A stretch of DNA of 64,000 nt from a virus. The position numbers and the translations under genes are program-made. The stretch is from the IMG/VR virus record IMGVR_UViG_3300033066_001842, one strand, 5' to 3'. The notes beneath the pieces are model-generated. The model did not search any database. It had not been told where the DNA came from and was given only the letters and a program-made list of their open reading frames with translations. Positions 110-54,902 of the stretch are shown here, one piece after another. Positions within the stretch are counted from its first letter, which is position 1; each line of letters opens with the position of its first letter.

Positions 110-185
110 GCGATTATGGTATTAACGGTAGTATGCGGGTCTTCCAAACCTTGAGGTTTCAGTTCGAATCTGAATAGTCGCTCCA
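110..185 (+). tRNA. tRNA-Gly(UCC)
   Basis: 7-bp acceptor stem GCGATTA/TAGTCGC, T-arm TTCAG-TTCGAAT-CTGAA, anticodon loop CTTCCAA, CCA encoded; one C·U mismatch in the anticodon stem. Confidence 0.65.
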
Positions 186-186
186 T

Positions 187-261
187 GGGGGTATCGTCTA
201 ACGGTTAGGACGGATGTTTTTCAGGCATCCTATACGGGTTCGAATCCTGTTACCCCTACCA
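187..261 (+). tRNA. tRNA-Glu(UUC)
   Basis: acceptor GGGGGTA/TACCCCT, D-arm GTCT-AACGGTTA-GGAC, anticodon loop TTTTCAG, GGTTCGAATCC T-arm, CCA encoded. Confidence 0.65.
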
Positions 262-370
262 TTTTTTTAAAAGCTTGCAGTCATGAAGCAAGGCGGAAAT
301 TACTGGCATAGTAGGGGTAAACCGAAACCAGTTCAGTTTAAATACTCACATCCGCAACCCCAGATTTTTT

Positions 371-446
371 GTGTTGGTAGCTTAATTGGTAAAGTCCAGG
401 ATTGTGTCTCCTGAGTATGTGGGTTCGAAGCCTACCCAACACCCCA
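371..446 (+). tRNA. tRNA-His(GUG)
   Basis: acceptor GTGTTGG/CCAACAC, anticodon stem CAGGA/TCCTG with loop TTGTGTC, T-arm GTGGG-TTCGAAG-CCTAC, CCA encoded; no encoded G-1. Confidence 0.6.
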
Positions 447-452
447 AATTTT

Positions 453-803
453 ATGAAAAGACTATTATTTTCAGTAACAAAAGATGATTTTGTTATGCAA
501 ACATTTACGGTGGGTGGTAACGGTGGTGGTGGAAAAGATACATCTAATAGTGGTGTACGTCTAATCCATAAAGATTCCGGGGCAGTTGGTGAGGGGCGAG
601 AACATCGAACCAATACCCAAAATAAAAAATCAGCTTTCCTCAAGTTAGTTGAATCCCCCAAGTTTAAAGCATGGCACAAACTAGAAACAGCTAAACGTTT
701 AAATAAACCAGTAGTTGAATCTAAAGAAGAAGTGCAAAAAAGAGTAGATAAACAACTAGAAGAAGATTTACAAAAAGGTCTAGTTGTGGTAGAATATTAT
801 TAG
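453..803 (+). CDS. hypothetical protein (ORF 402..803 trimmed to the first ATG after tRNA-His)
   Basis: ORF track; the 5' end of the ORF as called overlaps tRNA-His, so the Met at 453 is the likely start; Gly-rich N-terminus, no motif recognised. Confidence 0.4.
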   Translation: MKRLLFSVTKDDFVMQTFTVGGNGGGGKDTSNSGVRLIHKDSGAVGEGREHRTNTQNKKSAFLKLVESPKFKAWHKLETAKRLNKPVVESKEEVQKRVDKQLEEDLQKGLVVVEYY

Positions 804-824
804 TAAGTGGGTTTGTAGTAGCAA

Positions 825-1250
825 TTGGGAAAACAGGGGTTTTGCAAACCTAAGTTGCCAGTTCAACTCTGGCCTTATCCACCAATATTTTTAGTGTTTA
901 AAGATAAAGAAAAAAGAAAAGCCTACGATACAAATTGGAATAATTTAAATAGGCAACGTAAAAGAGACATAAATAAGAAATGGAAAGCTAAACAGCAAGA
1001 AGCTTTCCAAAGTATTAAAAATTTGTATAAGTGTTATTTTTGTAGTGAAGCTAATTCAGTTTGTTTAGATTTTCATCATGTCAATCCGAAAACTAAAAAA
1101 TTTAATGTAGCTAAAATGTCTGGAAGTTTTAGTATGGAAAATCTACTTAACGAAATTTCAAAATGTGTTGTTCTCTGTGCCAACTGTCATAGAAAATTAC
1201 ATGCCAATCTTCTGCCTGATCCTTTCGATAATCCCACCCAAGGGATATAA
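825..1250 (+). CDS. HNH homing endonuclease
   Basis: CYFCSEANSVCLDFHHVNP...CANCHRKLH: HNH motif with paired Cys zinc knuckle; located inside the tRNA cluster. Confidence 0.7.
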   Translation: MGKQGFCKPKLPVQLWPYPPIFLVFKDKEKRKAYDTNWNNLNRQRKRDINKKWKAKQQEAFQSIKNLYKCYFCSEANSVCLDFHHVNPKTKKFNVAKMSGSFSMENLLNEISKCVVLCANCHRKLHANLLPDPFDNPTQGI

Positions 1251-1287
1251 TATTTTTGCGTTTTCACCCCACATTTTAATTTTTAAG

Positions 1288-1361
1288 CTCCCTTAGTTCA
1301 ATGGTAGAATGCGCCCTTTGTATGGCCGTGACGTGGGTTCGATTCCTACAGGTAGCCCCAT
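1288..1361 (+). tRNA. tRNA-Thr(UGU)
   Basis: acceptor GCTCCCT/AGGTAGC (one C·U mismatch), D-arm GTTC-AATGGTA-GAAT, anticodon loop TTTGTAT, T-arm GTGGG-TTCGATT-CCTAC, CCA encoded. Confidence 0.5.
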
Positions 1362-1375
1362 TTTGAAAGGTTTTT

Positions 1376-1594
1376 ATGAGTAGAACTTTACGAAGACGAT
1401 CCAATTGGTTTTGGGATAATGCCTTTAAAAAAGTCCACAGGGACAGAGGTGGTGTTAATCCTTATGGACCTAGTTTTTACAAACACTGGTTCACCAAGTC
1501 TAATAGATTAGATTGGAGAAAGTTGCTAAAAAATAAAGATTTTGATTTTGATGATTTTGTTGCCCCAATACGCGAATTAGGCTATTGGTGGTAA
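1376..1594 (+). CDS. hypothetical small protein
   Basis: 72-aa ORF between tRNA-Thr and tRNA-Pro; W-rich, no motif. Confidence 0.35.
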   Translation: MSRTLRRRSNWFWDNAFKKVHRDRGGVNPYGPSFYKHWFTKSNRLDWRKLLKNKDFDFDDFVAPIRELGYWW

Positions 1595-1597
1595 TTT

Positions 1598-1671
1598 CGA
1601 GGTAAGGTGTTATGGCCGCACTCCAGTTTTGGGAACTGGAAGTCTAGGTTCGATTCCTAGTACCCCGACCA
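1598..1671 (+). tRNA. tRNA-Pro(UGG)
   Basis: acceptor CGAGGTA/TACCCCG (A3·C70 mismatch), perfect anticodon stem CCAGT/ACTGG with loop TTTGGGA, T-arm CTAGG-TTCGATT-CCTAG, CCA encoded. Confidence 0.65.
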
Positions 1672-1679
1672 TTTTTTTT

Positions 1680-1753
1680 GGTGATGTATCATAATGTAAT
1701 GAGCCACGCTGTCTACGTGTACTATGAGGGTTCAAGTCCCTTCATCATCGCCA
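1680..1753 (+). tRNA. tRNA-Asp(GUC)
   Basis: acceptor GGTGATG/CATCATC (one G·U), D-arm TCAT-AATGTA-ATGA, anticodon loop CTGTCTA, T-arm GAGGG-TTCAAGT-CCCTT, CCA encoded. Confidence 0.55.
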
Positions 1754-1830
1754 CTCCCTTGTAGCTTAACTGGCAAAGCATTCCGCTGTTAACGGAAAGG
1801 ATATAGGTTCGAATCCTATCAACGGAGCCA
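1754..1830 (+). tRNA. tRNA-Asn(GUU)
   Basis: acceptor TCCCTTG/CAACGGA (one mismatch), anticodon stem TTCCG/CGGAA with loop CTGTTAA, T-arm ATAGG-TTCGAAT-CCTAT, CCA encoded; abuts the previous tRNA. Confidence 0.65.
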
Positions 1831-4013: not shown

Positions 4014-4030
4014 GAATCCTCCAAATCAAA

Positions 4031-4477
4031 TTAATTTCCAGTAATAAGGTTTCTCAAAATCCCAATGCGGGAGGGTTTAGGATCTGGAGCTACATAAGTG
4101 TTAGGTTCGAAAGCGGCTGTTTCTTCCTCAATCTTAATAAGTTCTGGCATAGTAACAGCTTCTAACCTCTCCAACTCGCAAGCTGTGGCTACAAACCAAC
4201 CAACTTTTGCTAGATCATCCTCTGGTACACCATCTTTAATTTCCCCAATGTATTCATCAAATTCCAGTTGGTGAATATATATCTTAAGGTGTTTCAAAGC
4301 ATGGTTGGCTCTTTCCAATTGGTACTCTTTATTATTAATACCCTTGCGCCAATTGTTGCGATCATACTTAACCTCACCCTCTCGGAAAATTTTTCCAATA
4401 CGCTTTTCAGCTTCTAGCGGAATCTGTGTTAAATCAAAGTTTTCAATATCAGTTTTAACTGCCATACATTTTACCAT
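4031..4477 (-). CDS. hypothetical protein
   Basis: 148-aa ORF in the minus-strand block. Confidence 0.4.
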   Translation of the reverse strand: MVKCMAVKTDIENFDLTQIPLEAEKRIGKIFREGEVKYDRNNWRKGINNKEYQLERANHALKHLKIYIHQLEFDEYIGEIKDGVPEDDLAKVGWFVATACELERLEAVTMPELIKIEEETAAFEPNTYVAPDPKPSRIGILRNLITGN

Positions 4478-5282
4478 CTACAACAAACTTACCATTATTA
4501 ATAATCACAACATAATCGTTAAAATTTCCATTTGGATAAACATACCCATAATTGAAACCATTAACAATTCTTGTCGGCTTATTTTTCAAAAATGTGGGAT
4601 TCAAATTACTTAAGCAAGGAATCGTAACACCTGTATGATAATCGGATGAGTCAAGACGGTTAATATCCGTATACGCATAATACGTATGAATGTGTCCAGC
4701 CCTAATCGATACCCTAGTTTGGTCAACCAAATATTTGGCAGGATTAACAACAGTATTTCGTCCATTTAATATAACATCCCCATGTACAAAATGAAGTTTC
4801 CCAAGCTTGAAAAACTCCCCTTGTTCATAAATTTTCCAGCCGACATCTCTTAAACTAAAATATGTTTCGGGTTCTAACATCCCTTGAAGTTGTGGGTGTT
4901 TCTCAACAAATTGATCTATCCAAACTTCATGATTACCTTTGAGCCAAACAAGTTCAGTACTAGAACTTTCTTGCAAAGGTACTAAGACATTATGATAAAA
5001 CCCATCCAACTCAGTCTTTAGTCTAAGCTTCTCTCTATATAGTGGTTTATCAGCATTCCAGTGTGAAATGCAACCGCAGTCCAATTGATCGCCACCTAAA
5101 ATAATAGTATCAGGTTCAAAGTCTTCAATAAACTCTAAAGCACTATTTAAAGCTTTTACATTGTGTGTTGTACAGAGTGTATCTTTCCCACCCTTTTTTC
5201 GCCATTCATGCCCATAGTGTATATCATATAAAGCTACAAATTTTTTCACTTCAGTACAATCTCCTGTTGGCAATGGGGACAA
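4455..5282 (-). CDS. calcineurin-like metallophosphoesterase
   Basis: ordered motifs DIHYGH, GGDQLD, GNHEVW, HFVHGD and GHIHT. Confidence 0.65.
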   Translation of the reverse strand: MSPLPTGDCTEVKKFVALYDIHYGHEWRKKGGKDTLCTTHNVKALNSALEFIEDFEPDTIILGGDQLDCGCISHWNADKPLYREKLRLKTELDGFYHNVLVPLQESSSTELVWLKGNHEVWIDQFVEKHPQLQGMLEPETYFSLRDVGWKIYEQGEFFKLGKLHFVHGDVILNGRNTVVNPAKYLVDQTRVSIRAGHIHTYYAYTDINRLDSSDYHTGVTIPCLSNLNPTFLKNKPTRIVNGFNYGYVYPNGNFNDYVVIINNGKFVVDGKMYGS

Positions 5283-5644
5283 TCTAGAATAAGTGGCGGA
5301 AGTTCGGAGCTACCCTGTAACAATTGGTCGGCTTGACCACTTGCAGGATATTTCCCACCCTTCAGTACGTCTTTCACATGTATATAGAAAGCCGCACACA
5401 CCAAAGCAAAAACAGCTTCCTCTGGTTGGATAATACCGTTGTCGATAAAATCCACGTAGGGAGCCATCATATCTTTGCTCATAGTTTGCAAACGTCTTGC
5501 GGCCAAAGCTACAAGCGGTTTGGGGAAAGAAGCTGGATTCCCACTCTTAATAACAGCATTATTTAGGGTGTCCCCAATATCCTTCTTACTATATTTCGGG
5601 ATTTGTAAGGCTTTATCAGCCTTGATCTTGTCTAATTTCTTCAT
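5246..5644 (-). CDS. hypothetical protein
   Basis: 132-aa ORF, same-strand block. Confidence 0.4.
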   Translation of the reverse strand: MKKLDKIKADKALQIPKYSKKDIGDTLNNAVIKSGNPASFPKPLVALAARRLQTMSKDMMAPYVDFIDNGIIQPEEAVFALVCAAFYIHVKDVLKGGKYPASGQADQLLQGSSELPPLILDCPHCQQEIVLK

Positions 5645-5987
5645 CTAGTAAACCTAATACATCCTTACTATACATATGGTCACGCCCATAGTATTGCAAT
5701 CCAATCCTCATACTAGCCAAGTTCAGCATCCCCAACATATTAAGTAGAAATTGTTCCTCAATATCTCTCTCGTGTTCCTCGTCCGTAGTGAGTCTAATCA
5801 TTGACCAATATTCATCATTAAACTCTTTCTCCAAAGTCTCCCAATTATCTTCTACAAATTTCTCAAGTTGGCCAATGTGGCGCGACACTACATAGGCTAG
5901 ATGCGCCGTAAAATCTTGTTTTGTTGGTTTATTCATCTTTTTTTCCAGTATACGTTGATAGAAACTCTTGTAGAATGAAGTCCTCAT
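5616..5987 (-). CDS. hypothetical protein
   Basis: 123-aa ORF. Confidence 0.4.
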   Translation of the reverse strand: MRTSFYKSFYQRILEKKMNKPTKQDFTAHLAYVVSRHIGQLEKFVEDNWETLEKEFNDEYWSMIRLTTDEEHERDIEEQFLLNMLGMLNLASMRIGLQYYGRDHMYSKDVLGLLDEEIRQDQG

Positions 5988-6798: not shown

Positions 6799-9630
6799 TT
6801 ATTTAATCCTCTTGATTTGAGCCCAGTTGGCTCCTCTATACATTTTCACAGGACACCAAAATCCTTTAATCCTCTTATCCTCTTGTTCCATAACCGAAAG
6901 AAACTCTATACATTGTTCGTCTGTCCAAACCTTTGGCTTCTCAAATACCAACTCATCGTGGACTTGCAAAAGTGGAACACCATCCATACCATACCTATCA
7001 AAGAAATTAATCATATCCCCTTGAACGTGATCGGCTGAAGTTCCTTGCCCCAAGAATGAAAACGCTTGTTTTGCACATTCCAAAGGCTCATCTTGCAATC
7101 TAATAAATCTACCAGTAGCAGCCTTTAGAATACCAGTTTTTTCAATCTCTTGCAATACCCTCTGTTGCCATTCCCGAATAATCTTAAACTTTCCAAAGTA
7201 TTTCCCTTCCAACAAATCATTAGCTTTGGCACGAGCCTCTAATGACGTATCTTTAAAAATACGTTGGGCCAAATTTACACCAGAAAAAGCAATAATTCCG
7301 CCAGCGTATTCCCAATCATAGTAGGGTACAATCGCCCCCATCTTAATTGCCGCTTTAATCTTGGGTTTAGCTAAGTCCTCTTCTCTCAATAAGATAATAC
7401 CTTCCCCATAATTGCTACCATGGGCCACAGATTTAGCTACCGCTCTCTCCGTTTTGCCCAACATCTTAGCGGCGTCTTTGAATGCCCCATCAGAAACGTT
7501 TACAATCCATTGGAAAGCATCTTTTTCAATCTTGTATGTATCAAATCCGGCATACCACATACAATTATGAGAATAAAAACCATTAGATATATAAGTTTTA
7601 GACGTAGTAGTAATGCAAACTAATGGTTGTGGATTATCATATTCTATAACATTTAATACAGTAGCTCGCCCCTCACCATTTTTACCCCAAGTTCTCTTAC
7701 CATTCCATATTTTTTTAGATTTTTGTAAAAGTCTCTCTGGCCTTTTTTCTCCTAAAAAACGCAAACTATTCCAGATACCTGTTAATTGTATTGTTTTATG
7801 TGTTTTTCTGTATTGAGGTTGTTTCTTTTTTATTGAAATAGAAAAATTAAAACAATCTTTATAAAGAAGTTTTTCTACTTTATCAAAAATAGGTCCATCA
7901 GCTTGCCCAAATTGCACTCCACCAGAAGAAACGCTACCTTCACCATCAAAAATACCAGCAATATACCCATCATTAAATTGTGTTTTTGTAGTCCAAGGTT
8001 CAGCAGTAAATGGTAAAATATCACCAGTTACAATATCTTTCATTTCTACCCAAACCCTAGATAAATAACCTTTTTTTGACTTACGCAAAACAACTACTAA
8101 ATGGTCATCAGCGGCAGTTAGACTACCTCTATTGGTTTCAATAGTAAAAGTTTTTTTTCTTAAGAACTGAAGGTCAGTAATAGAACTTTCTTTAAATCTA
8201 GTACCTCTATTTCCTTGATCTTGGTTTTCATCAAATCCAATCAATTTATCATCTACAAATAAATCTTTAGCATAAATCCAAGTTAAATCTTCTTTCAATA
8301 TTTTTGTGTAGGGATCTACGCACATACGGAATTCCAAATTGGACTTATCAGCTTTAATCAAACATTGGTCATCCCTTTTTGGAATAATAGCAACCCTGGC
8401 TTGAGCAAAGGGGGATTGTTCCTCTTGTGGTGTATCCTCATCATATCCAGGAATATTTTGGAAATTAGGATCTTTAGAACTAAAACGCCCAGTACTTGTA
8501 CCAATAACAATAAATCGCGGATGCATTAAACCGTCATCCCCGAAAAATTTATCGTCAAACCAACTCTTAAAGCCTTTACCCGCACCCTTGTATTGGTACG
8601 CTTTTATCAACAATTGATAGGGTAATGGGTGACTGTCAATTCCCTGTACAAATTCGGTGAGCCCAACATCATTATTATCGGCTAACTCTGTTAGGGCTTT
8701 TTCAATAGCTTCTGCATTAAATTTATCAAGAAAGATCTTGTGCTTTTTGAAATAGTTAACAGCAGCAGCAGGAGCATTAGGATTAAAATGTTCATATTTC
8801 TTAGTTTTTCCGCTCTGTGTATAGGGGAAAAGCTTTTCTTTTTCGTCATCGCTAATCTTATCCAATCTGGCAATTAGATCACGATCTACGCGAACTCCAC
8901 CCTTTTGCATCAAATGAGCAATATAGGAAACCTTCAAAAGATCCCGATAGAATTGATAGGGAACACCCTTCTCTTCCATCTCTTTCAGCATTTCTATAAA
9001 GCCCTCGCGTGCCACATAACTATCCATGGCATTGTAACCAAAGACTTTATGGCTTGGACAGGGGCCAGTACATGTGACGCCACGACACATTTTAAACTGA
9101 GGCAACCCACAATAGAATGTGTTCATTGTCCACAAATTAAGGAATCCTAAGCTTCCTTTTTCTCCACCAACCTTTCCCCCGCTACTCTGTTTCACCAAAT
9201 CCTGATTCAACAAAAAGTGGGTAATCATCCCATCTTCAAAGCAATCTAGGGAAATCTCTCGCCCAAGTACTTTCTCAATAACTTCTTTTTCAGCCCCAAT
9301 AACAGAATAGCCAACCAATCTAGTCATACCTAATTCCGCCACCTGTACAATAAAGTCTACAACTTCTTTACTGTAAGGGGCGGAGGCAGCTAAATTATGG
9401 TTGGCTAAACCTGTAATGGTTGGCTTATTAGTTTTGGGATCGAACTCAAAATCTATTCCCGTAAACTCAGAGGGATTCTCTAAAATTTCACGCAAATATT
9501 TATTCCCTTCGGCATACTTTGGCCAAAAGGATTTTCCATCAAGTGATTTCGAGTTCTCAATACTTGTGAAAAGATTTAACTGTACTTCACGATTCCCGTA
9601 AAGGTCTATCTCTTCGAATCTCTTTGACAT
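6799..9630 (-). CDS. family A DNA polymerase (Pol I-like) interrupted by an intein
   Basis: Pol A motif A DKSNLEFRM (cf. DYSQIELRI), motif B RAVAKSVAHGSNYGEG, motif C LQVHDELVF; the 943-aa length is inflated by a ~253-aa insert. Confidence 0.75.
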   Translation of the reverse strand: MSKRFEEIDLYGNREVQLNLFTSIENSKSLDGKSFWPKYAEGNKYLREILENPSEFTGIDFEFDPKTNKPTITGLANHNLAASAPYSKEVVDFIVQVAELGMTRLVGYSVIGAEKEVIEKVLGREISLDCFEDGMITHFLLNQDLVKQSSGGKVGGEKGSLGFLNLWTMNTFYCGLPQFKMCRGVTCTGPCPSHKVFGYNAMDSYVAREGFIEMLKEMEEKGVPYQFYRDLLKVSYIAHLMQKGGVRVDRDLIARLDKISDDEKEKLFPYTQSGKTKKYEHFNPNAPAAAVNYFKKHKIFLDKFNAEAIEKALTELADNNDVGLTEFVQGIDSHPLPYQLLIKAYQYKGAGKGFKSWFDDKFFGDDGLMHPRFIVIGTSTGRFSSKDPNFQNIPGYDEDTPQEEQSPFAQARVAIIPKRDDQCLIKADKSNLEFRMCVDPYTKILKEDLTWIYAKDLFVDDKLIGFDENQDQGNRGTRFKESSITDLQFLRKKTFTIETNRGSLTAADDHLVVVLRKSKKGYLSRVWVEMKDIVTGDILPFTAEPWTTKTQFNDGYIAGIFDGEGSVSSGGVQFGQADGPIFDKVEKLLYKDCFNFSISIKKKQPQYRKTHKTIQLTGIWNSLRFLGEKRPERLLQKSKKIWNGKRTWGKNGEGRATVLNVIEYDNPQPLVCITTTSKTYISNGFYSHNCMWYAGFDTYKIEKDAFQWIVNVSDGAFKDAAKMLGKTERAVAKSVAHGSNYGEGIILLREEDLAKPKIKAAIKMGAIVPYYDWEYAGGIIAFSGVNLAQRIFKDTSLEARAKANDLLEGKYFGKFKIIREWQQRVLQEIEKTGILKAATGRFIRLQDEPLECAKQAFSFLGQGTSADHVQGDMINFFDRYGMDGVPLLQVHDELVFEKPKVWTDEQCIEFLSVMEQEDKRIKGFWCPVKMYRGANWAQIKRIK
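7564..8322 (-). mobile_element. intein with LAGLIDADG homing endonuclease inside the DNA polymerase
   Basis: the insert starts at Cys (LEFRM|CVDPYTKI) right after Pol motif A and ends SHN|C (codons checked on the DNA: TAT TCT CAT AAT TGT); internal GYIAGIFDGEGSV LAGLIDADG-type motif. Confidence 0.65.
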
Positions 9631-10148: not shown

Positions 10149-10338
10149 ACATATTTTCTAAAATCTCTACAGCCCTAGCTATATTAACAGCTTGAGCTAT
10201 TTGCACACTAATCATTAAGGGTGTGACATCCAACCCCTTACCTGAAAACTCTGCAATCCGCGATTGTTCTTTCAATTGTTCCAGTGCGGCTTGAATATCA
10301 GCACTCTTAGTTAAATCCAATTCTTTTTCTTGTTTCAT
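10075..10338 (-). CDS. hypothetical protein
   Basis: 87-aa ORF. Confidence 0.3.
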   Translation of the reverse strand: MKQEKELDLTKSADIQAALEQLKEQSRIAEFSGKGLDVTPLMISVQIAQAVNIARAVEILENMYGDTNARSSKGEAHDRFHGDLGSS

Positions 10339-11036
10339 TTACTTGCAAATGGCCATTCGCCAGTCCAATAATGGCCTCTCCACATTCTCAATCCGCCCTT
10401 TCCTGGCATAAAGGGTACAGCATATAACAATTGTACCGCATTTTTACCCATAAGCACAAGGGGGCGGTAGCCTTGCTCATAGAACGTTTTGGCCCTCTTA
10501 ATATCTTCCTGCAACAACCTCAAATACACGAACTGAGTTATAATGTCGCGTGGATGATAGGTACAAATAAATAGATTAGGGTCATAATCCACCAAATGAT
10601 TATCATACATACGGCACATATTTTCACTATTCTTTTTATGTGACGCAGTGGGGTAAACATTGTTTGGTGGTCTACATCTTAAAACGTTCGAAATCAAAAA
10701 ATCATCTCTAGTCAACCCCACATATGGGGCAACTTTAGTCCAAAATATCTCACCACCCTTCCCAGTCAACCCCGCATTATTTACAACATCAGCCGCTCCA
10801 GGGTGGTCACAAAGCAAAGCAATCTTTACATTGGTCCCCTTGCTGTCCGGGCAAAAGCCTTGTCCCGTATAACCGGACACGCAATTTCTGCAAGGTTGTG
10901 GTTTGGCCCCAACTCCTGCGCTAATATGAACGAGAGAATCCCAATCGGAAGGGTCACTTAAAGCAACCTTTCCTTTTGGGATCTCTTTCGTACTTCTATT
11001 TGGTAGACTTTTGTAGTCTACATTATGTAACGGCAT
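10335..11036 (-). CDS. uracil-DNA glycosylase family 4/5-like protein
   Basis: CRNCVSGYTGQGFC Cys cluster, DHPGAADVVNNAGLTGKGGEI (cf. GEAPG...G.PFvG.aG) and NVLRCRPP (cf. NvvkCRPP). Confidence 0.5.
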   Translation of the reverse strand: MPLHNVDYKSLPNRSTKEIPKGKVALSDPSDWDSLVHISAGVGAKPQPCRNCVSGYTGQGFCPDSKGTNVKIALLCDHPGAADVVNNAGLTGKGGEIFWTKVAPYVGLTRDDFLISNVLRCRPPNNVYPTASHKKNSENMCRMYDNHLVDYDPNLFICTYHPRDIITQFVYLRLLQEDIKRAKTFYEQGYRPLVLMGKNAVQLLYAVPFMPGKGGLRMWRGHYWTGEWPFASK

Positions 11037-13505: not shown

Positions 13506-13638
13506 TGGATGGGGTGAGATTCGAACTCACAACCTCTCGTTTAGCATACGATAAAGTTAATCAAAACGGTTCAAATTTACGTTTGAACTAAAAGGTAGAC
13601 TAACAGTTTTTAGCGCTCTACCATTGAGCTACCCACCC
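13506..13638 (-). ncRNA. tRNA-like RNA with a ~70-nt insert replacing the anticodon arm (element E1)
   Basis: ends pair as a 7-bp acceptor stem GGGTGGG/CCCATCC; D-arm GCTC-AATGGTA-GAGC; T-arm GTGAG-TTCGAAT-CTCAC; discriminator A, no CCA; the insert has a CTAAAA/TTTTAG helix closing a 14-nt loop and a GTTCAAA/TTTGAAC hairpin. Confidence 0.45.
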
Positions 13639-13652
13639 ATAAAAAAATCGGA

Positions 13653-13781
13653 GATTGGTAAAGGGATTCGAACCCTTATTAGCGGCTCTGAATGCAATAA
13701 CCTTTATCTAGTCGGTTCTTATAGAACTAAAAAGGGCGACAAAGATGTTTTTACGCTGTCCTACCATTAGACGATACCAAT
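13653..13781 (-). ncRNA. tRNA-like RNA with a ~70-nt insert replacing the anticodon arm (element E2, paralogue of E1)
   Basis: acceptor ATTGGTA/TACCAAT perfect; D-arm GTCT-AATGGTA-GGAC; T-arm AAGGG-TTCGAAT-CCCTT; no CCA; the insert shares TAAAAAC, a 6-bp helix TAAAAA/TTTTTA closing a 14-nt loop, a GTTC-TATAA-GAAC hairpin and GAACCG with E1. Confidence 0.45.
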
Positions 13782-13856
13782 CATAAAAGAAAATAATTAG
13801 AACTAAAAAGGGCGAAAGAACGTTTTATTCACCACTTCCCCGTATTTGGAGCGCCT

Positions 13857-13930
13857 TTCCAGAATCGAACTGGATACCATTGTTTTGCAGACAATCGACT
13901 AACCATTTGTCTTAAAGTGCATATGGTGGG
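13857..13930 (-). tRNA. tRNA-Cys(GCA)
   Basis: acceptor GCACTTT/AAGGCGC (A3·C70 mismatch), perfect anticodon stem ATTGT/ACAAT with loop CTGCAAA, T-arm TCCAG-TTCGATT-CTGGA, CCA encoded. Confidence 0.65.
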
Positions 13931-13933
13931 GAA

Positions 13934-13961
13934 GGTAAGATTCGAACTTACTATTGATTAA
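13934..13961 (-). other. orphan tRNA 3' half (T-arm plus acceptor 3' strand plus CCA) with no matching 5' half
   Basis: minus-strand read GTAAG-TTCGAAT-CTTAC-CTTCCCC-A-CCA; no complementary GGGGAAG-type 5' strand within 130 nt upstream; the HNH gene starts 90 bp away. Confidence 0.3.
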
Positions 13962-14052
13962 TTATGAGTTAATTGTGTTTACCTATAATTCTTTCAAAGC
14001 GGTTCTAATCACTTTCTTATATCTCTATACTAACATAAATAATGGGAGCCCG

Positions 14053-14472
14053 TCAAGGATTCGATCTTCCATGTTCCCTAATTCTATGACAGTTGGCACA
14101 GAGAACAACACATTTTGAAATTTCGTCATTAAGTTTATCAATAGGACTTAAAGTCATATGACTTACATTATATTTCTTATCCAAAGCATCTAAATGGTGA
14201 AAATCCATTACATAAAAAGGAAATTTTTTATGACAATCGAAACAAGGTTTATTTTTAGCTTCCCTTATAATATTTCTATTTAGTGCTTGTTTTATAACAC
14301 GTTTAATAGCTATTTTTTCTAAACGTTTTTTATTAGTTTTACAATATAAACTATTATGATCTTTTTGACATTGTTTACACCAAGGCTGTTTATAAATTTT
14401 TCCACTTTTATAGCGCCTTATATTAAAACAAGTTAGAGCCTTATTTGTTTGACATCTATTACAAAACTTCAT
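14053..14472 (-). CDS. HNH homing endonuclease
   Basis: CFDCHKKFPFYVMDFHHLD...CANCHRIREH; the C-terminal half resembles the HNH at 825..1250. Confidence 0.7.
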   Translation of the reverse strand: MKFCNRCQTNKALTCFNIRRYKSGKIYKQPWCKQCQKDHNSLYCKTNKKRLEKIAIKRVIKQALNRNIIREAKNKPCFDCHKKFPFYVMDFHHLDALDKKYNVSHMTLSPIDKLNDEISKCVVLCANCHRIREHGRSNP

Positions 14473-14512
14473 TGACTTTGATTCTATTATAACATATCAA
14501 AGTCTTTTTTAT

Positions 14513-14586
14513 GGAAGCGAGAGAAGGAATCGAACCTTCGATCTAACTTTCAAAGAGTTACGTTTTACCAATTAAACTATCTCGCC
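14513..14586 (-). tRNA. tRNA-Gln(UUG)
   Basis: acceptor GGCGAGA/TCTCGCT, D-arm GTTT-AATTGGTA-AAAC, perfect anticodon stem TAACT/AGTTA with loop CTTTGAA, T-arm GAAGG-TTCGATT-CCTTC, CCA encoded. Confidence 0.7.
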
Positions 14587-16520: not shown

Positions 16521-18212
16521 TTAATCTTCGTCTTCAGTTAAGGCTTTTTCCGAATTAAACGCATGAATTACACTTGTTACATTCGGATCAAATCCCGTTA
16601 CATCCAACGAATAAGGATCACTATCACTAGCAAAACCAGCAACACCATAACCAGTAGACTGCATACCAAGAGACATCAATCTCGTTTTGGGCTTATTCAT
16701 AAGTTTACGATAATTTTGCGTTAATGTCAAGGGGTGTTCCCCTGTATTGAAATCGTTATCGGTGATATGAATGAAGCAATCCACGTCTTGCTTGTTCTTG
16801 ATAGCATGTTTAATTGGTAAACCTGCATCAGTGTAACCCGTATTATATTTTTTGGCTTTTGTAATAGCCGTTGAAATATTGTCGGTTTTGGTCAATGGCA
16901 AGTCATTCAGAACACTAGAGAAACATTTGACATCACACCATGGTTCTCTTTTTACAATGGTAAGGGCGATTGTGGCGGCGGCTTCACAGAAAGACATTAA
17001 ACCGTTCGCCATCATGCTAGACATTGAGCGCGAAACGTCAACAGAAACCATAAAGTTTTTGCCAGTAGCGGGGGCAACATCGAAAGAGTTGTTGAAAGCT
17101 TCTTCCAAAGCTTCTTGAATTTTGGGAACAGGTTTCCAGGTTAATGAACCTTTCAAACCTTGTCCTTTTCCATAAGTGCGCAGAGCAAACAAAAGTTTAA
17201 GAGGGTGAATTCCAGCTTTTGTCAATTGCTCAATATTGGTAAGGCGACGTACAACCGTTTTGACATCCTCATTAGTTCCTGAAAGTAAACCACTCGCAGT
17301 TAATGAAGAAAGTTGGCGAACGGTTGCCATGTATGGCATTTTCGCAAGTAGGGCTTGTTGAACTTGAGGCACATTTTTAAACCATGTGGGAATCATTTCA
17401 TGGGTCATATCGGTAGCCCCAATCAATTCCACAAGACGTTTAATTTGTGCGTCAGATTTTTCATTTTCTTTCCATGATTGGATTTCAATGAAAGCTTCAA
17501 TCTGGCGTCCCCCCTTTGTCAAAATTTTAGGATCAATATCGGCTAAAGCTTTTAAAACTCCAGCTTCATTTCCATTAACCACATAATTAATGAAAGAGTT
17601 TGTAATTGATCCTTGAAACTCAGGGTGGGAAAGGCGAAGTAAGTCCTGGTGCGACCAACCATCACGTTGACGATACTTCAATAATTGATAAACCAGTGAG
17701 TCAAATGACTTATCGGTGTACCAGTCACCTACATAACGTTTCAACATGCGGCCCCATCCACGCATTCCCGTAACAATTTCCGCAAAGTGAAATAAATCAG
17801 TACCAGTATTGGCAACATGTTTTAGTTCATTGAGGAACATATCACGAACAGTACGACTAGGATGCGATGCGCCTAGAGCCAAAGTATATAACATTGGTTC
17901 TTTTGTAAGAGCACGACGTTGGCTTGAAATTTCTCGAATCTTTTGAACAACTTCTTTGGGGAAATTTTGAATCATCGCTCGGATGTTCGCCGTATTTTGG
18001 GCCAAGAGTTGTTGCGATCCTACAGCAAAGGTATGATTTTCCACACCCAAGATAAGGAATTTTTCGAGAAACTGTTCAGGAGTAAGTTTCAGTGAGTATC
18101 CGCCCCCAAAATTAGGAACAGAGAACTTTGCATTTTTCCCCGTAACAGGTTTTGTTACAGGATTGCTTTTTGCAGTTTTGTTTTTCTTTTGAGAGTAAGT
18201 AGAAATGGGCAT
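16521..18212 (-). CDS. Ro60/Rsr-like protein (TROVE domain plus C-terminal vWA)
   Basis: 563 aa; ~370-aa N-terminal helical-repeat region followed by a vWA fold with MIDAS VSVDVSRSMS (DxSxS); size and domain order match Ro60 orthologues. Confidence 0.55.
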   Translation of the reverse strand: MPISTYSQKKNKTAKSNPVTKPVTGKNAKFSVPNFGGGYSLKLTPEQFLEKFLILGVENHTFAVGSQQLLAQNTANIRAMIQNFPKEVVQKIREISSQRRALTKEPMLYTLALGASHPSRTVRDMFLNELKHVANTGTDLFHFAEIVTGMRGWGRMLKRYVGDWYTDKSFDSLVYQLLKYRQRDGWSHQDLLRLSHPEFQGSITNSFINYVVNGNEAGVLKALADIDPKILTKGGRQIEAFIEIQSWKENEKSDAQIKRLVELIGATDMTHEMIPTWFKNVPQVQQALLAKMPYMATVRQLSSLTASGLLSGTNEDVKTVVRRLTNIEQLTKAGIHPLKLLFALRTYGKGQGLKGSLTWKPVPKIQEALEEAFNNSFDVAPATGKNFMVSVDVSRSMSSMMANGLMSFCEAAATIALTIVKREPWCDVKCFSSVLNDLPLTKTDNISTAITKAKKYNTGYTDAGLPIKHAIKNKQDVDCFIHITDNDFNTGEHPLTLTQNYRKLMNKPKTRLMSLGMQSTGYGVAGFASDSDPYSLDVTGFDPNVTSVIHAFNSEKALTEDED

Positions 18213-34417: not shown

Positions 34418-34492
34418 GGCTAGTTAGCTGAGATGGATTAGCTTTGGTCTGAAAAACCAAGCAGCTTGGATCGTTACCAAGACTAGCCACCA
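34418..34492 (+). tRNA. tRNA-Phe(GAA)
   Basis: perfect acceptor GGCTAGT/ACTAGCC, anticodon stem TTGGT/ACCAA loop CTGAAAA, T-arm CTTGG-ATCGTTA-CCAAG, CCA encoded. Confidence 0.7.
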
Positions 34493-34497
34493 GTTTT

Positions 34498-34574
34498 TGC
34501 ACAGATAGTTTAATTGGTAAAACAATGGATTCCAAACCCATTAGATGAGAGTTCAAATCTTTCTCTGTGTGCCA
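34498..34574 (+). tRNA. tRNA-Trp(CCA)
   Basis: acceptor GCACAGA/TCTGTGT, anticodon loop TTCCAAA closed by AATGG/CCATT with an A·C at 31-39, T-arm GAGAG-TTCAAAT-CTTTC, CCA encoded. Confidence 0.55.
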
Positions 34575-34712
34575 ATCTTACCAGAATTATACCCGTTTAT
34601 TTCTTAGCCGAAACAATAGTCTAGCTACCTATTGCGGGGTTCCGATTATTGCATTTTAGGACGCACAAGGAACATGCATTACTCTAGTGCTATAATTCTG
34701 GTATAGTCTTTT

Positions 34713-34787
34713 GTTCCGAGTTAGCTCAAAGGTAGAGCAAGCGACTGATAATCGTTAGACCATAGTTCGATTCTATGACTCGGAACC
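34713..34787 (+). tRNA. tRNA-Ile(GAU)
   Basis: perfect acceptor GTTCCGA/TCGGAAC, D-arm GCTC-AAAGGTA-GAGC, anticodon loop CTGATAA, T-arm CATAG-TTCGATT-CTATG; CCA not encoded. Confidence 0.65.
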
Positions 34788-34988
34788 ATTTTTATGCCTG
34801 AAACAAAAAAACAAATACAAGATAGACTTAAAACTGTAATGCCAATTGGTGACACAGATTTCACAGACATGTCTGAAACATCTTTTGTCATGTGGTTTAA
34901 TGGTCACTGCTTCCTGTGGAAATTTGATAAAGATTCCCAAAAATGGGATTGTATTGACGAACTCTAGTTTATATGTTATGCTAAATGT

Positions 34989-35064
34989 GGGTCTGTAACT
35001 CAATTGGCAGAGTAATTGGCTTTTAACCAAGAGGTTGGGGGTTCAATTCCCTCCAGACCCACCA
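34989..35064 (+). tRNA. tRNA-Lys(UUU)
   Basis: perfect acceptor GGGTCTG/CAGACCC, D-arm ACTC-AATTGGCA-GAGT, anticodon loop CTTTTAA, CCA encoded. Confidence 0.7.
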
Positions 35065-35073
35065 AATTTTTAT

Positions 35074-35148
35074 GGTCCTTTCGTCTAACGGATAAGGCAT
35101 TGCGCTACGAACGCAAAAATATAGGTTCGATTCCTATAGGGACTTCCA
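35074..35148 (+). tRNA. tRNA-Arg(ACG)
   Basis: acceptor GGTCCTT/AGGGACT (2 G·U), perfect anticodon stem TTGCG/CGCAA loop CTACGAA, T-arm ATAGG-TTCGATT-CCTAT, CCA encoded. Confidence 0.7.
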
Positions 35149-35157
35149 CAATTTTAC

Positions 35158-35248
35158 GGAAAGGTGACAGAGTGGTAATGTGCGATTCTGCTAAAATCAG
35201 GCTAACCTCTAAAGGGTTACGAAGGTTCGATCCCTTCCTTTTCCGCCA
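35158..35248 (+). tRNA. tRNA-Ser(GCU)
   Basis: 91 nt with long variable arm; acceptor GGAAAGG/CTTTTCC, anticodon loop CTGCTAA, T-arm GAAGG-TTCGATC-CCTTC, CCA encoded. Confidence 0.6.
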
Positions 35249-35434
35249 AAACTTTTAAAGGACATTTTTATGGCACGTATTTCTAAAGAACCTTGTGAAT
35301 TTTGCAAGGGTGAAAATTGTGTAGAAGTTTCTCAACCTAATGATTGGGATTCCGATTACAAAATCCATTGCCTAAAATGTGATAAAGTTTATTGGGTAGA
35401 CGGTGAAGACGGTTAATCTGCTATCCTAATTTTA

Positions 35435-35529
35435 TGGGAGTGATGCAAGGTTGGTAGACTTGCGCTGGTCTGTAAAACCAGTCTTTCTTAGAAAGTTAAC
35501 ACATTGGTTCAAATCCATTCACTCCCACC
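35435..35529 (+). tRNA. tRNA-Tyr(GUA)
   Basis: 95 nt with long variable arm; perfect acceptor GGGAGTG/CACTCCC, perfect anticodon stem CTGGT/ACCAG loop CTGTAAA, T-loop TTCAAAT, CCA encoded. Confidence 0.7.
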
Positions 35530-35551
35530 ATTTCTTTTTTAAGGACACCCC

Positions 35552-35929
35552 ATGCTAAGACGTTTTTTCCTAACCCTTCTACCTGCCTCGCTTTTGGCGA
35601 AACCATCCCCCAAAATTTCTACTTTTGAAAAACAATGTAGAATAATTGCATCCGAAAAATTAAAATTTCTTCGGGAAAATGTAACTCAACCGTTAGCTAT
35701 TAACGAACATAGATGGTTTACAAATTCTAAATACATTATATGTTATGAAATGTTTTTAGATGGAACAATCTGTTTACCCAATCCGGCAGGTTTAAAAGGC
35801 ACACAAATAGTTTGTTACGAATGTCCTAGTGATGAATCTAGAAAAAATTTTATCAACCTCTTAATCCTCACCAAGGGTCAATATAATACAGGGCGGTATT
35901 GCATCTTCGAAACTTCCGAATTTCTCTAA
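35552..35929 (+). CDS. secreted hypothetical protein inside the tRNA cluster
   Basis: signal-like MLRRFFLTLLPASLLAKPS; 125 aa, 5 Cys. Confidence 0.4.
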   Translation: MLRRFFLTLLPASLLAKPSPKISTFEKQCRIIASEKLKFLRENVTQPLAINEHRWFTNSKYIICYEMFLDGTICLPNPAGLKGTQIVCYECPSDESRKNFINLLILTKGQYNTGRYCIFETSEFL

Positions 35930-36171
35930 AAATGACACAATTAGAACAAATTATAGAATGGCAAGAACGTCTTGATAAGATACATCTTGCCCTATATCCT
36001 GTTTCTAAAGTGACGCCTATACCTGCCTTTAAAAATATAAACGATATCAAAGCTCTCCCCATATGGAAAATTAAAAAACTATATGGGGAAATTTTCTGTG
36101 CTTACTGTGAATCTGATAAAATCCTCAAACGAGACTCCTGCTCCAACTGTGGGGCTCCATACAACCATTGA
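35899..36171 (+). CDS. zinc-ribbon small protein
   Basis: CAYCESD...CSNCG. Confidence 0.3.
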   Translation: MHLRNFRISLKMTQLEQIIEWQERLDKIHLALYPVSKVTPIPAFKNINDIKALPIWKIKKLYGEIFCAYCESDKILKRDSCSNCGAPYNH

Positions 36172-36209
36172 CTACCTTATCAATAAATGATATAATCTTT
36201 ATATGGAAG

Positions 36210-36301
36210 GTGGGCTGCAATGGTGCGGAAACTGTCTTGAAAACAGTCCTATGTAGCGATCACTGCATAAGGGTTCGATTCCTTCACCTTCCTCCATTTT
36301 A
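36210..36301 (+). tRNA. tRNA-Ser(UGA)
   Basis: 92 nt with long variable arm; perfect acceptor GGAAGGT/ACCTTCC, perfect anticodon stem ACTGT/ACAGT loop CTTGAAA, CCA encoded. Confidence 0.65.
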
Positions 36302-36452
36302 TTTATGAAATATGATAAGGTCCATACTATAAATTGGAAAGTTATTGAAAAACAAATTGGAAAACCAAAAACAATTGACGACTATAGAAGGACTTATAAA
36401 ATAATTAACGGTAAATTAGTAGAGACTACTCCCGATTTACCCCACAAAACTT

Positions 36453-36530
36453 TGGCCTCCTAGCTCCAATCGGTAGAGGCAACGGACTTAAAATCCGTAC
36501 AGTCTGGGTTCGAATCCCAGGGGGGCTACC
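36453..36530 (+). tRNA. tRNA with Leu anticodon UAA but short (5-nt) variable region
   Basis: acceptor GGCCTCC/GGGGGCT (2 G·U), perfect anticodon stem ACGGA/TCCGT loop CTTAAAA, T-arm CTGGG-TTCGAAT-CCCAG, discriminator A73, CCA encoded. Confidence 0.5.
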
Positions 36531-36554
36531 ATTTTTGTTGTAAACTAAATATAT

Positions 36555-36630
36555 GGCGCGTTGATGTAATTGGCAACCATACCAGTCTTAGAAACTGTTT
36601 TTATAGGTTCGAATCCTATACGCGCCACCA
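36555..36630 (+). tRNA. tRNA with Leu anticodon UAG but short (5-nt) variable region
   Basis: perfect acceptor GGCGCGT/ACGCGCC, anticodon loop CTTAGAA (4 bp plus one mismatch in the stem), T-arm ATAGG-TTCGAAT-CCTAT, A73, CCA encoded. Confidence 0.5.
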
Positions 36631-36772: not shown

Positions 36773-37639
36773 ATGCAATTCCATTATGCCGTCTATTTCT
36801 ATGTCGGCTTTTCTGGACATTCCCCACACAGCAGCTTTAAACATTCTGCTGGTGAAATCCACATTAACTTAGACAAACCCCGTATTGAAAAAGAATTAGA
36901 ACGCAACAATATGGGTATCCTCATAATGGCACGCCTAACCTCCTCTGACGCCATTATGGAAACCATCGGCCTCCTAAACGCCCTAGAACATACATTTCCC
37001 TCTGAAAGAGTGGATCTCTTCATCCCCTATTATCCCTATTCCCGCGCTGACCGCGTAATCGGAAATGGTGGCGGGGATTCTTTTGGCGTAGAAATCATTA
37101 CCAACCTTTTTTCCGATGAAATTTGTCCTAACATTGGAAAAATTATCACCCTGGACACCCATTCTGCCGTTTCTCATTCCGTAGTAGATTCAGATATCCT
37201 CTGTCACTACGAATTATTCCAAGAATCAGGAATTAATATCCCCGTCCACGCCAACATTATTACCGTAGCTCCCGACAAAGGCGCTTCCAATCGTGCTTCC
37301 GTCTTTGCATCCTGTCTCAAAACAGGTTTAATCACTGCTTCCAAAGAACGCGATCTTGGTGGCCACATCTCCTATTACAAAGTTCCAGAAAACCTCCCCT
37401 CCAACGCCTACTACATCGTAATCGATGATATCTGTGATGGGGGCGCAACCTTCAATCTATTAGCAAAAAGTTTGCCCCAAAATGCTAAAAAAATTCTAAT
37501 CGTAACACACGGCATTTTTTCCCAAGGTGTAAATGCTATTCATGGTTATGATTATATTGTTACAACAAATTCAATTCATGATTTTCCAGCAACTTCAAAA
37601 AACTTTATTGTAAAGGATCTTACGAAATGTCTTGTGTAA
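36773..37639 (+). CDS. prs: ribose-phosphate pyrophosphokinase (PRPP synthetase)
   Basis: FIPYYPYSRADR (cf. Prs PYFGYARQDR) and PRPP-binding YIVIDDICDGGATF (cf. VDDIIDTGGT). Confidence 0.65.
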   Translation: MQFHYAVYFYVGFSGHSPHSSFKHSAGEIHINLDKPRIEKELERNNMGILIMARLTSSDAIMETIGLLNALEHTFPSERVDLFIPYYPYSRADRVIGNGGGDSFGVEIITNLFSDEICPNIGKIITLDTHSAVSHSVVDSDILCHYELFQESGINIPVHANIITVAPDKGASNRASVFASCLKTGLITASKERDLGGHISYYKVPENLPSNAYYIVIDDICDGGATFNLLAKSLPQNAKKILIVTHGIFSQGVNAIHGYDYIVTTNSIHDFPATSKNFIVKDLTKCLV

Positions 37640-39078
37640 ACCCTCTCCTCCATACTGATGTTTACAAGATGGGCCACATGGAGCAATATGCCCCTGGAAC
37701 TACCCGTATATATTCCAACATCGTAACCCGTTCCGCAAGAAAATATCCCGCCGTCCTAAATTTCGGAACACAATACTATCTTTCCGAATATCTTTCCAAA
37801 CCAATTACCAAAGCCCATGTGGACGAATTTCTCGACCTAAACAATCGTATCCTTTCCTCCACATCCAACGAAGTTTACACCAAATTACGCGCCCTTGAAA
37901 AATTAGGCTTCGTTCCCCTAATCATCAAAGCTTTACCAGAAGGTAACGTTTACCCAATTGGGACACCCCTTCTCACAGCTACAAACCATCCTGACTATCC
38001 AGAATTCGCGTGGACTGTCGGATTTTACGAAAGCTTACTTCTAAAAATCTGGAACACTTGTACCGTAGCCACTTTTTCGCGCAAACTAAAACAACTGTGC
38101 TACCTTTACGCCGACCTAACCTGTGATTCCAATCTCCATGTGGATTACCAAGTTCACGACTTCGGCTATCGTGGCTGCTCATCTGAAGAAACTGCCGCAA
38201 TCTCCGGTATGTCTCACCTAGTAAATTTTCTAGGCACAGATACCGTTCTCGCCGTAAAATACGCCAAAGACTACTATTACGCAACGGACCCAATCGGTCT
38301 ATCTGTCCCTGCATCCGAACATTCTGTAATGTGTTCTTTTGGCCCAACCAACGAAATCGATGCATTCCGCCACATGCTTAAAACATATCCTACTGGAATT
38401 GTTTCAATCGTGTGTGACACCTACAACATTTGGAAAGTTCTTTCAGAATTCGTACCCCTTCTGAAAGACGAAATTCTTGCGCGTAACGGAAAAGTAGTAT
38501 TTCGCCCCGACTCAGGCGACCAAGAAAAAATCCTTTGTGGAAACCCTGACGCTTCCGACCCTCTAGAAAAGAAAGGTGTCTTCCAACTCCTCTTCGAACA
38601 ATTTGGTGAATTTCCAAACAAAAAAGGATATCGCACCCTCCACCCAAAAGTGGGTGTTGTCTATGGTGACGGATTCTACTACGATAAATTCCACACGGTT
38701 TTCAACCGGATGAAAACTGACAAAATCTCCTCAGCCGAACTAACAGTAGGGGTTGGCGGAATTTTGCTCCAACAACACAACCGCGATGATATGGGTTTTT
38801 CCATGAAAGCCACCTATATCGAACAAAACGGTAACGGCGTAAACATCTTTAAAGACCCAATTACCGATCCTGGCAAAAAATCCCTCAAAGGACTGCTCTC
38901 CGTAACCCAAGAACCCTACCATGGGGGCTATACTTGGAAAACCAACCAAGAAATCACATGGGAACAAGAGAAAAGAGGGGCTTTACAGGTGGTCTTTAAT
39001 CGTGGTAAACTATTAAATCAGACTACTTTTGATGAAATTCGCAAAAGGGCCGATTCCTCAATCGTTAAAAGATATTAA
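37627..39078 (+). CDS. nadV: nicotinamide phosphoribosyltransferase (NadV/NAMPT-like)
   Basis: 483 aa, the size expected for NadV; HDFGYRG motif of the NAPRTase/NAMPT family; sits immediately downstream of prs, whose product PRPP is its co-substrate. Confidence 0.6.
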   Translation: MSCVNPLLHTDVYKMGHMEQYAPGTTRIYSNIVTRSARKYPAVLNFGTQYYLSEYLSKPITKAHVDEFLDLNNRILSSTSNEVYTKLRALEKLGFVPLIIKALPEGNVYPIGTPLLTATNHPDYPEFAWTVGFYESLLLKIWNTCTVATFSRKLKQLCYLYADLTCDSNLHVDYQVHDFGYRGCSSEETAAISGMSHLVNFLGTDTVLAVKYAKDYYYATDPIGLSVPASEHSVMCSFGPTNEIDAFRHMLKTYPTGIVSIVCDTYNIWKVLSEFVPLLKDEILARNGKVVFRPDSGDQEKILCGNPDASDPLEKKGVFQLLFEQFGEFPNKKGYRTLHPKVGVVYGDGFYYDKFHTVFNRMKTDKISSAELTVGVGGILLQQHNRDDMGFSMKATYIEQNGNGVNIFKDPITDPGKKSLKGLLSVTQEPYHGGYTWKTNQEITWEQEKRGALQVVFNRGKLLNQTTFDEIRKRADSSIVKRY

Positions 39079-54878: not shown

Positions 54879-54902
54879 TAATAATAATAGTTAGTTTTAT
54901 CG

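Follow-up and report, generated by a model that had tools for sequence, protein, structure and literature searches.

Inteins are on record in bacterial DNA polymerase I (Pol I), with a preference for catalytic motifs (Novikova et al. 2016, PMC4760082). Among phages, described examples include the inteins of the cluster C1 mycobacteriophage ScottMcG, Gordonia phage Minos (gp8) and Ralstonia phage Gamede, which are about 262-275 residues long and reside in a terminase-like protein, a portal protein and a terminase large subunit (TerL), respectively. The ScottMcG intein (Pham3880-g) spliced when placed in an MBP-intein-GFP reporter, although part of the precursor remained (Kelley et al. 2016, PMC5050341). 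Inteins of the PI-SceI type, including PI-PfuI and TliVMA/PhoVMA, are larger (360-540 residues) and contain a LAGLIDADG nuclease with two motifs (blocks C and E), a pseudo-dimeric monomer that often has an extra DNA-recognition region. To our knowledge, characterised intein LAGLIDADG enzymes all carry two domains in one chain. LAGLIDADG homing endonucleases cut DNA at specific sites and leave 3' overhangs of 4 nt. I-CreI and I-MsoI are free-standing, intron-encoded enzymes with long beta-hairpins and pseudo-palindromic 22-bp sites. Single-motif LAGLIDADG enzymes are homodimers that act on pseudo-palindromic sites (PMC2655683). Here we analysed a 64,000-nucleotide stretch of viral DNA (the window; IMG/VR record IMGVR_UViG_3300033066_001842), in which the gene for a family A DNA polymerase of a tailed phage is interrupted by a 253-residue segment with a single LAGLIDADG domain. 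In our view this segment is highly likely to be a class 1 intein, located in the palm of the polymerase, and, at the DNA level, a selfish homing element.

The precursor is encoded on the minus strand, as are all of its parts, by an open reading frame (ORF) of 943 codons and a stop (6799..9630), which Pfam, PHROG and alignments to the Taq and Bst polymerases identified as an interrupted family A enzyme. The N-extein (residues 1-436, 8323..9630), delimited from the ORF and the homologue alignment, ends in ADKSNLEFRM. It is followed by the intein (7564..8322), which extends from Cys1 to His252-Asn253 and was delimited by sequence, alignment, structural model and family search, and by the C-extein (residues 690-943 and stop, 6799..7563), whose first residue is the +1 Cys690 (7561..7563). 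The intein occupies 759 nt, or 253 in-frame codons without a stop; Cys1 is encoded by TGC (8322..8320), Asn253 by AAT (7566..7564) and the +1 Cys by TGT (7563..7561), so that the reading across the junctions is ADKSNLEFRM, then C...YSHN, then CMWYAGFDTYK. A first-pass annotation had proposed an intein with a LAGLIDADG endonuclease at this place, and direct reading and translation of the DNA found its coordinates, boundary residues and LAGLIDADG motif (GYIAGIFDGEGSV) to be exact. Within the intein, the model and residue conservation delimited an N-terminal Hint part (residues 1-105, 8008..8322), with Cys1 and the His74 of block B, and a C-terminal Hint part (residues 218-253, 7564..7671), which comprises blocks F and G and ends in SHN. 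The LAGLIDADG nuclease domain (7720..7986) was placed between them by DSSP analysis of the model, Pfam LAGLIDADG_3 and domain profile matches, and its motif (residues 119-131, 7930..7968), with the acidic residue E128, was read directly. The segment is compositionally foreign, with a GC content of 0.307 (0.146 at third codon positions, GC3) against 0.399 (0.368) in the exteins, a contrast that was repeated in a related contig (L002). Two opposite-strand ORFs that overlap the intein (7420..7623 and 7613..7816, plus strand, 67 residues each) had no Pfam match and therefore provide no evidence for an antisense nuclease. No further copy of the intein family was found in a six-frame translation of the window.

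The identity of the interrupted enzyme was clear from several libraries. Pfam DNA_pol_A matched the precursor in two pieces either side of the intein (E 1.3e-25), PHROG 17 (DNA polymerase) matched at E 9e-29, and the NCBIfam Pol I models were concordant. In a phmmer alignment to Klentaq, motif A of the precursor, LIKADKSNLEFRM, is paired with LVALDYSQIELRV; after conceptual splicing, LIKADKSNLEFRMCMWYAGFD in the C-terminal half is paired with LVALDYSQIELRVLAHLSGDE. Since polymerase D428 aligns with Taq D610, it is the catalytic Asp of motif A (D428-K-S-N-L-E-F-R435, 8326..8349), and D428, S430, L432, E433 and R435 are invariant across the alignment of the polymerase clade. The C-extein holds both motif B, RAVAKSVAHGSNYG (K733, H737, Y741), and motif C, QVHDELVFE; Pfam and the Klentaq alignment together account for the complete family A set of motif A DxSxxExR, motif B RxxxKxxxxxxxY and motif C HDE. 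In Taq, the residues that align on either side of the intein are V618 and L619, immediately downstream of DYSQIELR; in E. coli they are presumably I713 and M714, counting from DYSQIELRIMAH. The insertion is thus one residue past the motif A Arg (DKSNLEFR-M/C versus DYSQIELR-V/L in Taq), at motif A as had been annotated, and splicing would restore a normal junction. As a separate observation, the motif B position that corresponds to Taq F667 (F762 in E. coli, on the numbering assumed here) is occupied by His737 (codon 7420..7422, minus strand), which is invariant in 9/9 clade members. This position governs dideoxynucleotide discrimination, and its usual residues are Phe, Tyr and Leu.

A search with the whole precursor returned four homologues of 689 residues (P0003-P0006, 61-67% identical) and one of 947 residues (P0002, 68% identical). 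The four shorter proteins are without exactly the 253 residues, reading DKSNLEF/LRM and then CMY/LYYAGFDTY, and P0002 has a 258-residue version of the intein at the identical site. Conceptual splicing of the window's precursor, which the first-pass annotation had suggested, restored a normal junction to which these 689-residue proteins align. The +1 Cys690 is invariant in all nine clade members, intein-free ones included. Moreover, an intein-plus allele (L002) and an intein-free allele (L003) came from one and the same sample, ERZ27249284. In related contigs the polymerase gene keeps its neighbours: a UDG-like gene on one side and, where the contig reaches, a metallophosphoesterase and an AAA_25 helicase on the other. 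Another relative of the polymerase, P0008, is interrupted at its PNxQN/IP (NLQNIP) motif by an unrelated intein of 305 residues (residues 394-698), the junctions of which read PNYQN, then C...SGN, then C. The P0008 intein appears to have two LAGLIDADG-like motifs, and in Pfam it gave a weak Intein_splicing match only. Since this site is distinct, the polymerase clade has at least three intein insertion points.

To characterise the fold, an AlphaFold2 model was built on four family members (predicted local distance difference test score, pLDDT, 77; predicted template modelling score, pTM, 0.70). Residues 1-105 and 218-253, the two Hint halves, form beta-strands with a pLDDT of about 90, the strands within 218-252 ranging from 81 to 94. 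Foldseek comparison of the intein model with the PDB gave the TliVMA, PI-PfuI, PhoVMA and PI-SceI inteins as best matches (E about 1e-8), the top matches having a probability of 1.00; the Mxe GyrA mini-intein, a hedgehog autoprocessing (Hint) domain and BIL domains followed at E values to 1e-5. The window's intein thus has the Hint fold, the nuclease between blocks B and F, and the class 1 termini in common with the PI-SceI-type inteins. In addition, the intein part of an NCBIfam model for an intein-containing radical SAM protein (profile positions 76-334) aligned with residues 1-253 at E 4.6e-4. When the single intein sequence was searched against PDB sequences with phmmer, only a spurious match (E=1.6) was obtained, so that structure and profile searches were needed; a PHROGs search with the intein alone returned nothing. 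Conservation was assessed in 174 family copies, taken from clusters that share at most 50% identity. C1 and H74 are 100% conserved, and T239, T243, G248, H252 and N253 are 98-100% conserved.

These results bear on the alternative that the segment is a native accessory insertion retained by the polymerase, for instance a loop that binds a processivity factor, as the thioredoxin-binding domain does in T7 polymerase. Lineage-specific insertions do exist in family A polymerases, and Pfam detected no Hint or intein-splicing domain in the segment, TIGR01443 remaining below threshold; the Hint assignment consequently rests on structure, family and terminal residues. However, the closest relatives are precisely without the segment, the Hint fold is accompanied by the Cys1/His-Asn/Cys+1 signature, the composition is foreign, the position is between motif A and the next helix, and the same element is found in methyltransferases, portal proteins and terminases. 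The first-pass annotation had itself raised a native insertion without Hint blocks as the counter-case, and a Hint fold was found. The precise absence, the fold, the unrelated hosts and the foreign composition effectively refute this alternative, to which we assign almost no probability. The intein call is, in turn, borne out by Cys1, the block B His, His-Asn followed by Cys, the Hint fold and the precise absence from orthologues.

As a class 1 intein, the segment would be removed at the protein level. The 943-residue precursor would be unable to assemble its active site because 253 residues part motif A from the remaining palm and the fingers. Cys1 would initiate an N-S acyl shift at Met436-Cys1, the +1 Cys690 would attack the resulting thioester, and Asn253 would cyclise with the help of His252 to release the intein. 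An S-N shift would then give a 690-residue polymerase with the junction DKSNLEFRM-CMWYAGFD, as in the intein-free relatives. Two features of block B speak against unimpaired splicing of this copy. The window's block B is AxxH (Ala71, 8110..8112), whereas 94% of the family have (S/T)xxH, and position B:12 is Val76 (8095..8097), whereas 80% of the family have Trp; splicing could therefore be slower. The four inteins at the window's insertion point (P0001, P0002, P0029 and P0035), this copy among them, all have AxxH and are all without the B:12 Trp, and judged by their sequences they form a recognisable subgroup.

The same residues were considered for two further explanations. In a class 3-like mechanism, the internal Cys236 (7615..7617) would be the first nucleophile. 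This residue stands at the equivalent of block F position 4 here and in P0002, and the Trp that is usual in the family at B:12, together with Ser or Thr at G:5, recalls the Trp-Cys-Thr triad. However, Cys1 is found in this intein as in every other family member (100%), B:12 is Val76 and G:5 is Ser251 in the window's intein, and at position 236 the family as a whole favours Ala as its consensus residue. Since P0029 and P0035 at the same site also have Ala there, Cys236 is not a conserved catalytic residue. A class 3 intein was rejected on these grounds and is very improbable. Alternatively, the replacement of the block B Thr/Ser by Ala could mark a dead intein in a polymerase pseudogene, with replication performed by another polymerase. 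Against this stand the intact 943-codon ORF, the conservation of all polymerase motifs and terminal splicing residues, and the persistence of AxxH in four diverged polymerases (P0001, P0002, P0029 and P0035). The low ratio of nonsynonymous to synonymous substitution (dN/dS) of the N-terminal Hint part (0.155) likewise argues against it, and ten large ORFs scanned with PHROG and Pfam included no second polymerase. We consider a dead intein to have only a slight chance of being correct.

Further support for a class 1 intein came from the family to which the segment belongs. With a hidden Markov model (HMM) built from four inteins, a search of 1.84 billion representative proteins retrieved 4,064 cluster representatives at E<=1e-3, of which 1,359 reached E<=1e-30, and nearly all of the best 150 matches span the whole profile in 240-280 residues. 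Full-length copies among the top matches (n=171) have a median length of 252 and invariably start with Cys1 and end in His-Asn (100% each), followed by a +1 Cys in 81, Ser in 64 and Thr in 26. As read from these alignments, the class 1 signature is repeated across unrelated host proteins. In tblastn searches of phage records, 163 records covered 100% of the segment, with E values down to 6e-26: 130 from Mycobacterium phages (in the terminase-like protein, the cluster C 'terminase'), 17 from Gordonia phages (in the portal protein), 15 from Ralstonia phages (in the terminase large subunit) and one from a Xanthomonas phage. The match to ScottMcG gp245 (residues 289-557) runs end to end along the family HMM at E 5e-45; given the splicing of that intein in the reporter, the family of the window's intein has at least one experimentally spliced member. 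Overall, the ScottMcG, Minos and Gamede inteins matched the profile at E values of 5e-45 and 9e-47. They have Cys1, the block B His, one DGEG motif, the conserved Gln, RPxRLL and the C-terminal TxxxT...G..SHN in common with the window's intein, to which they are only 23-30% identical. They also differ from it in keeping (S/T)xxH where the window's copy has AxxH, in their insertion sites and hosts, the window's host being a family A polymerase, and in residing in cultured phages (actinobacteriophages and Ralstonia phages) rather than in a phage of about 72 kb that is uncultured and rich in tRNA genes. The element therefore belongs to an intein family known from phages, and inteins have already been reported in its class of host protein.

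The host enzyme class is that of the bacterial Pol I inteins, and dozens of the hosts among the best 150 family matches are family A polymerases interrupted at motif A. About 17 copies are inserted at x/C-DYSQIELR, before the catalytic Asp, and about 45 at DY/(S/C)QIELR, including P0044 and P0089 of the window's polymerase clade. The window's own point, D.S..E.R./C, accounts for 4 copies (P0001, P0002, P0029 and P0035). Most family A polymerase inteins thus lie at DY/(S/C)QIELR or x/CDYSQIELR, whereas the window's point is 7 residues further downstream. Other hosts of the family are MT-A70 methyltransferases (at WGF/TYKT), portal proteins and terminases, and flanking residues read by eye suggest Pol III alpha-like enzymes and ribonucleotide reductases as well. 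Several host proteins contain multiple copies of the intein family, with up to 5 matched stretches in P0070. A literature search, from whose coverage most subscription-journal papers fell outside, did not find motif A inteins in family A polymerases described; the three nested insertion points may be under-described, and we claim no novelty for them.

The nuclease of this intein is half the usual size. About 112 residues separate the Hint halves, and in the model they contain one domain of about 90 residues, with helices at 113-127, 144-155 and 183-192 and strands at 129-132, 135-141, 160-165 and 175-180 by DSSP. Pfam LAGLIDADG_3 matched at 24.5 bits (cut-off 22.5; E 3.3e-5), and with the motif read in the sequence this upheld the LAGLIDADG assignment of the first-pass annotation. 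A profile of the nuclease domain also matched I-MsoI (3.8e-7), PI-PfuI (5.7e-5), I-HjeMI and nearly the whole of the C-terminal domain of I-AniI (1e-6), E128 aligning with I-AniI E148 and Q140 with I-AniI Q171. As in I-CreI and I-MsoI, an acidic residue ends the LAGLIDADG helix and a Gln ends beta2. In contrast to those enzymes, the domain is embedded in a Hint fold, has short hairpins and faces targets without detectable palindromy. No second LAGLIDADG motif was found in the window's intein, nor anywhere in the family, so that a single intein chain supplies only one of the two domains of an active LAGLIDADG enzyme; in this, and in its 253 residues, the intein is unlike those of the PI-SceI type. 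In the label 'classic homing intein' from the first-pass annotation, 'classic' was accordingly an overstatement, since the nuclease is a single domain where the canonical enzyme has two motifs. A second refinement is that block B of this copy is AxxH, not TxxH. Single-LAGLIDADG inteins were likewise not found described in a literature search in which most subscription-journal papers were outside coverage. The half-size nuclease, which is family-wide, may be under-described, again with no claim of novelty.

Since single-motif enzymes are homodimeric, dimerisation of two inteins would be the most economical mechanism for such a nuclease. By the most likely route, two inteins would pair via their LAGLIDADG helices. 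If a second phage with an intein-free allele of the polymerase infects the same cell, the pair would cut that allele close to the codons of motif A, and repair by recombination would copy the intein into it. The alternative that has to be weighed most seriously is that the intein splices but its nuclease is inactive, a decaying or structural remnant inherited vertically at a late stage of the homing cycle. The nuclease is the fastest-evolving part of the element: the two closest copies are 44-48% identical in this domain at the amino acid level (44% at the low end), with a dN/dS of about 0.63 as compared with 0.155 for the N-terminal Hint part, ratios that are rough and of limited value because synonymous divergence (dS) is near saturation in the exteins (proportion of synonymous differences, pS, 0.79-0.88) and the A+T bias at third codon positions of the intein lowers its pS. 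The Hint part is under strong constraint and the nuclease is much less constrained, a divergence that fits either a fast-evolving specificity or the onset of decay. The domain is single and its beta-hairpins are very short, the beta1-beta2 hairpin of the model being far shorter than that of I-CreI. Nor was a palindromic signal seen in the target. Palindromy was not above background in six polymerase alleles or in five independent family insertion sites, including that of the window, the best scores near the junction being 6-7/11 pairs (P 0.2-0.99 over both sets); the five sites were no more symmetric than positions chosen at random within their own genes (P 0.39-0.99). A symmetric homodimer is therefore unsupported by the palindromy test, the power of which is low because natural homodimer sites, such as that of I-CreI, are only partly symmetric. 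Finally, the cleavage assays of Kelley et al. (PMC5050341) covered two-motif TerL inteins only.

On the other side, the conserved nuclease residues, the catalytic Glu and Gln among them, are intact in the window's copy and 91-100% conserved in the 174 copies: D126, G127, E128 and G129 at 96-100%, Q140 at 100%, and R194, P195 and R197 of the RPxRLL motif at 91-99%. In a selfish nuclease, conservation of this degree would be expected only under selection for activity. The pattern of identity between lineages also speaks for mobility. In the closest pair the intein is less conserved than the extein (61% versus 72%), which is expected for a selfish element. In contrast, intein identity exceeds extein identity between distant lineages that share the insertion point (46-49% versus 38-41%; 48% versus 39% for P0001-P0029), which suggests, at the level of sequence, transfer of the intein between polymerase lineages. 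The presence of both allele types in one sample likewise argues against an element that is only inherited vertically. Taken together, we regard an inactive nuclease as a possible but distinctly less probable state of affairs than an active homing intein. Still more broadly, we would put forward only tentatively that the family is a very large class of compact inteins of about 250 residues, undescribed as far as the literature searched goes, whose half-LAGLIDADG nuclease would dimerise (as two excised inteins or two precursors) or nick, with motif A as main hot-spot and hopping between three points a few codons apart.

In annotating this phage, the 690-residue product of splicing would be entered as its true polymerase, and inteins of this kind need to be removed before alignment in marker-gene surveys based on family A polymerases. 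The locus adds another case of inteins in the catalytic core of replication enzymes. Should the nucleases of this family work in dimeric form, no natural fusion of an intein with a nuclease would be smaller, and they would offer a compact scaffold for protein engineering as well as a test case for a symmetric enzyme that acts on an asymmetric coding sequence.

Library scans identified the window as part of a tailed phage, with a terminase large subunit (45161..47017) and an SU10-like portal protein (47037..49316); an AAA_25 helicase and a metallophosphoesterase are also encoded. A megablast search with 6 kb around the polymerase gene found no match among 50,697 phage records, and the phage therefore has no close cultured relative. 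Adjoining the polymerase is a gene for a UDG-superfamily-like protein of 233 residues (10335..11036, minus strand), which scored 23.4 bits against the Pfam UDG cut-off of 24.3. The same arrangement of UDG-like and polymerase genes is kept in four related contigs (L001, L003, L004 and L005), and in P0010 a UDG-domain protein is itself interrupted by an intein of the window's family. The window also carries a Ro60/TROVE gene (16521..18212, minus strand; Pfam TROVE 4e-27, vWA_Ro60 1e-36), which is present in L001 as well (4029..5723). About 3 kb from it is an odd 133-nt split tRNA-like Rfam match (13506..13638, minus strand), with which a sub-threshold match to YrlA, a Y RNA-like family, overlaps (13593..13704; E 0.0097, with 26.6 bits where the gathering score is 69); the TROVE gene and the YrlA-like match may together form a Ro60 and Y RNA module of the phage. 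ARAGORN found twenty tRNA genes, in clusters at 110..1830, 13847..14586, 34418..36630 and 54901..54974, and further tRNA-like matches at 809..881, 13506..13638 and 39084..39156 were found by Rfam only. This tRNA complement is large for a phage of about 72 kb. Lastly, a nicotinamide phosphoribosyltransferase (NAMPT) is encoded at 37627..39078 on the plus strand (PHROG 448, 9e-151; Pfam NAPRTase and NAMPT_N), and represents an auxiliary NAD-salvage gene.

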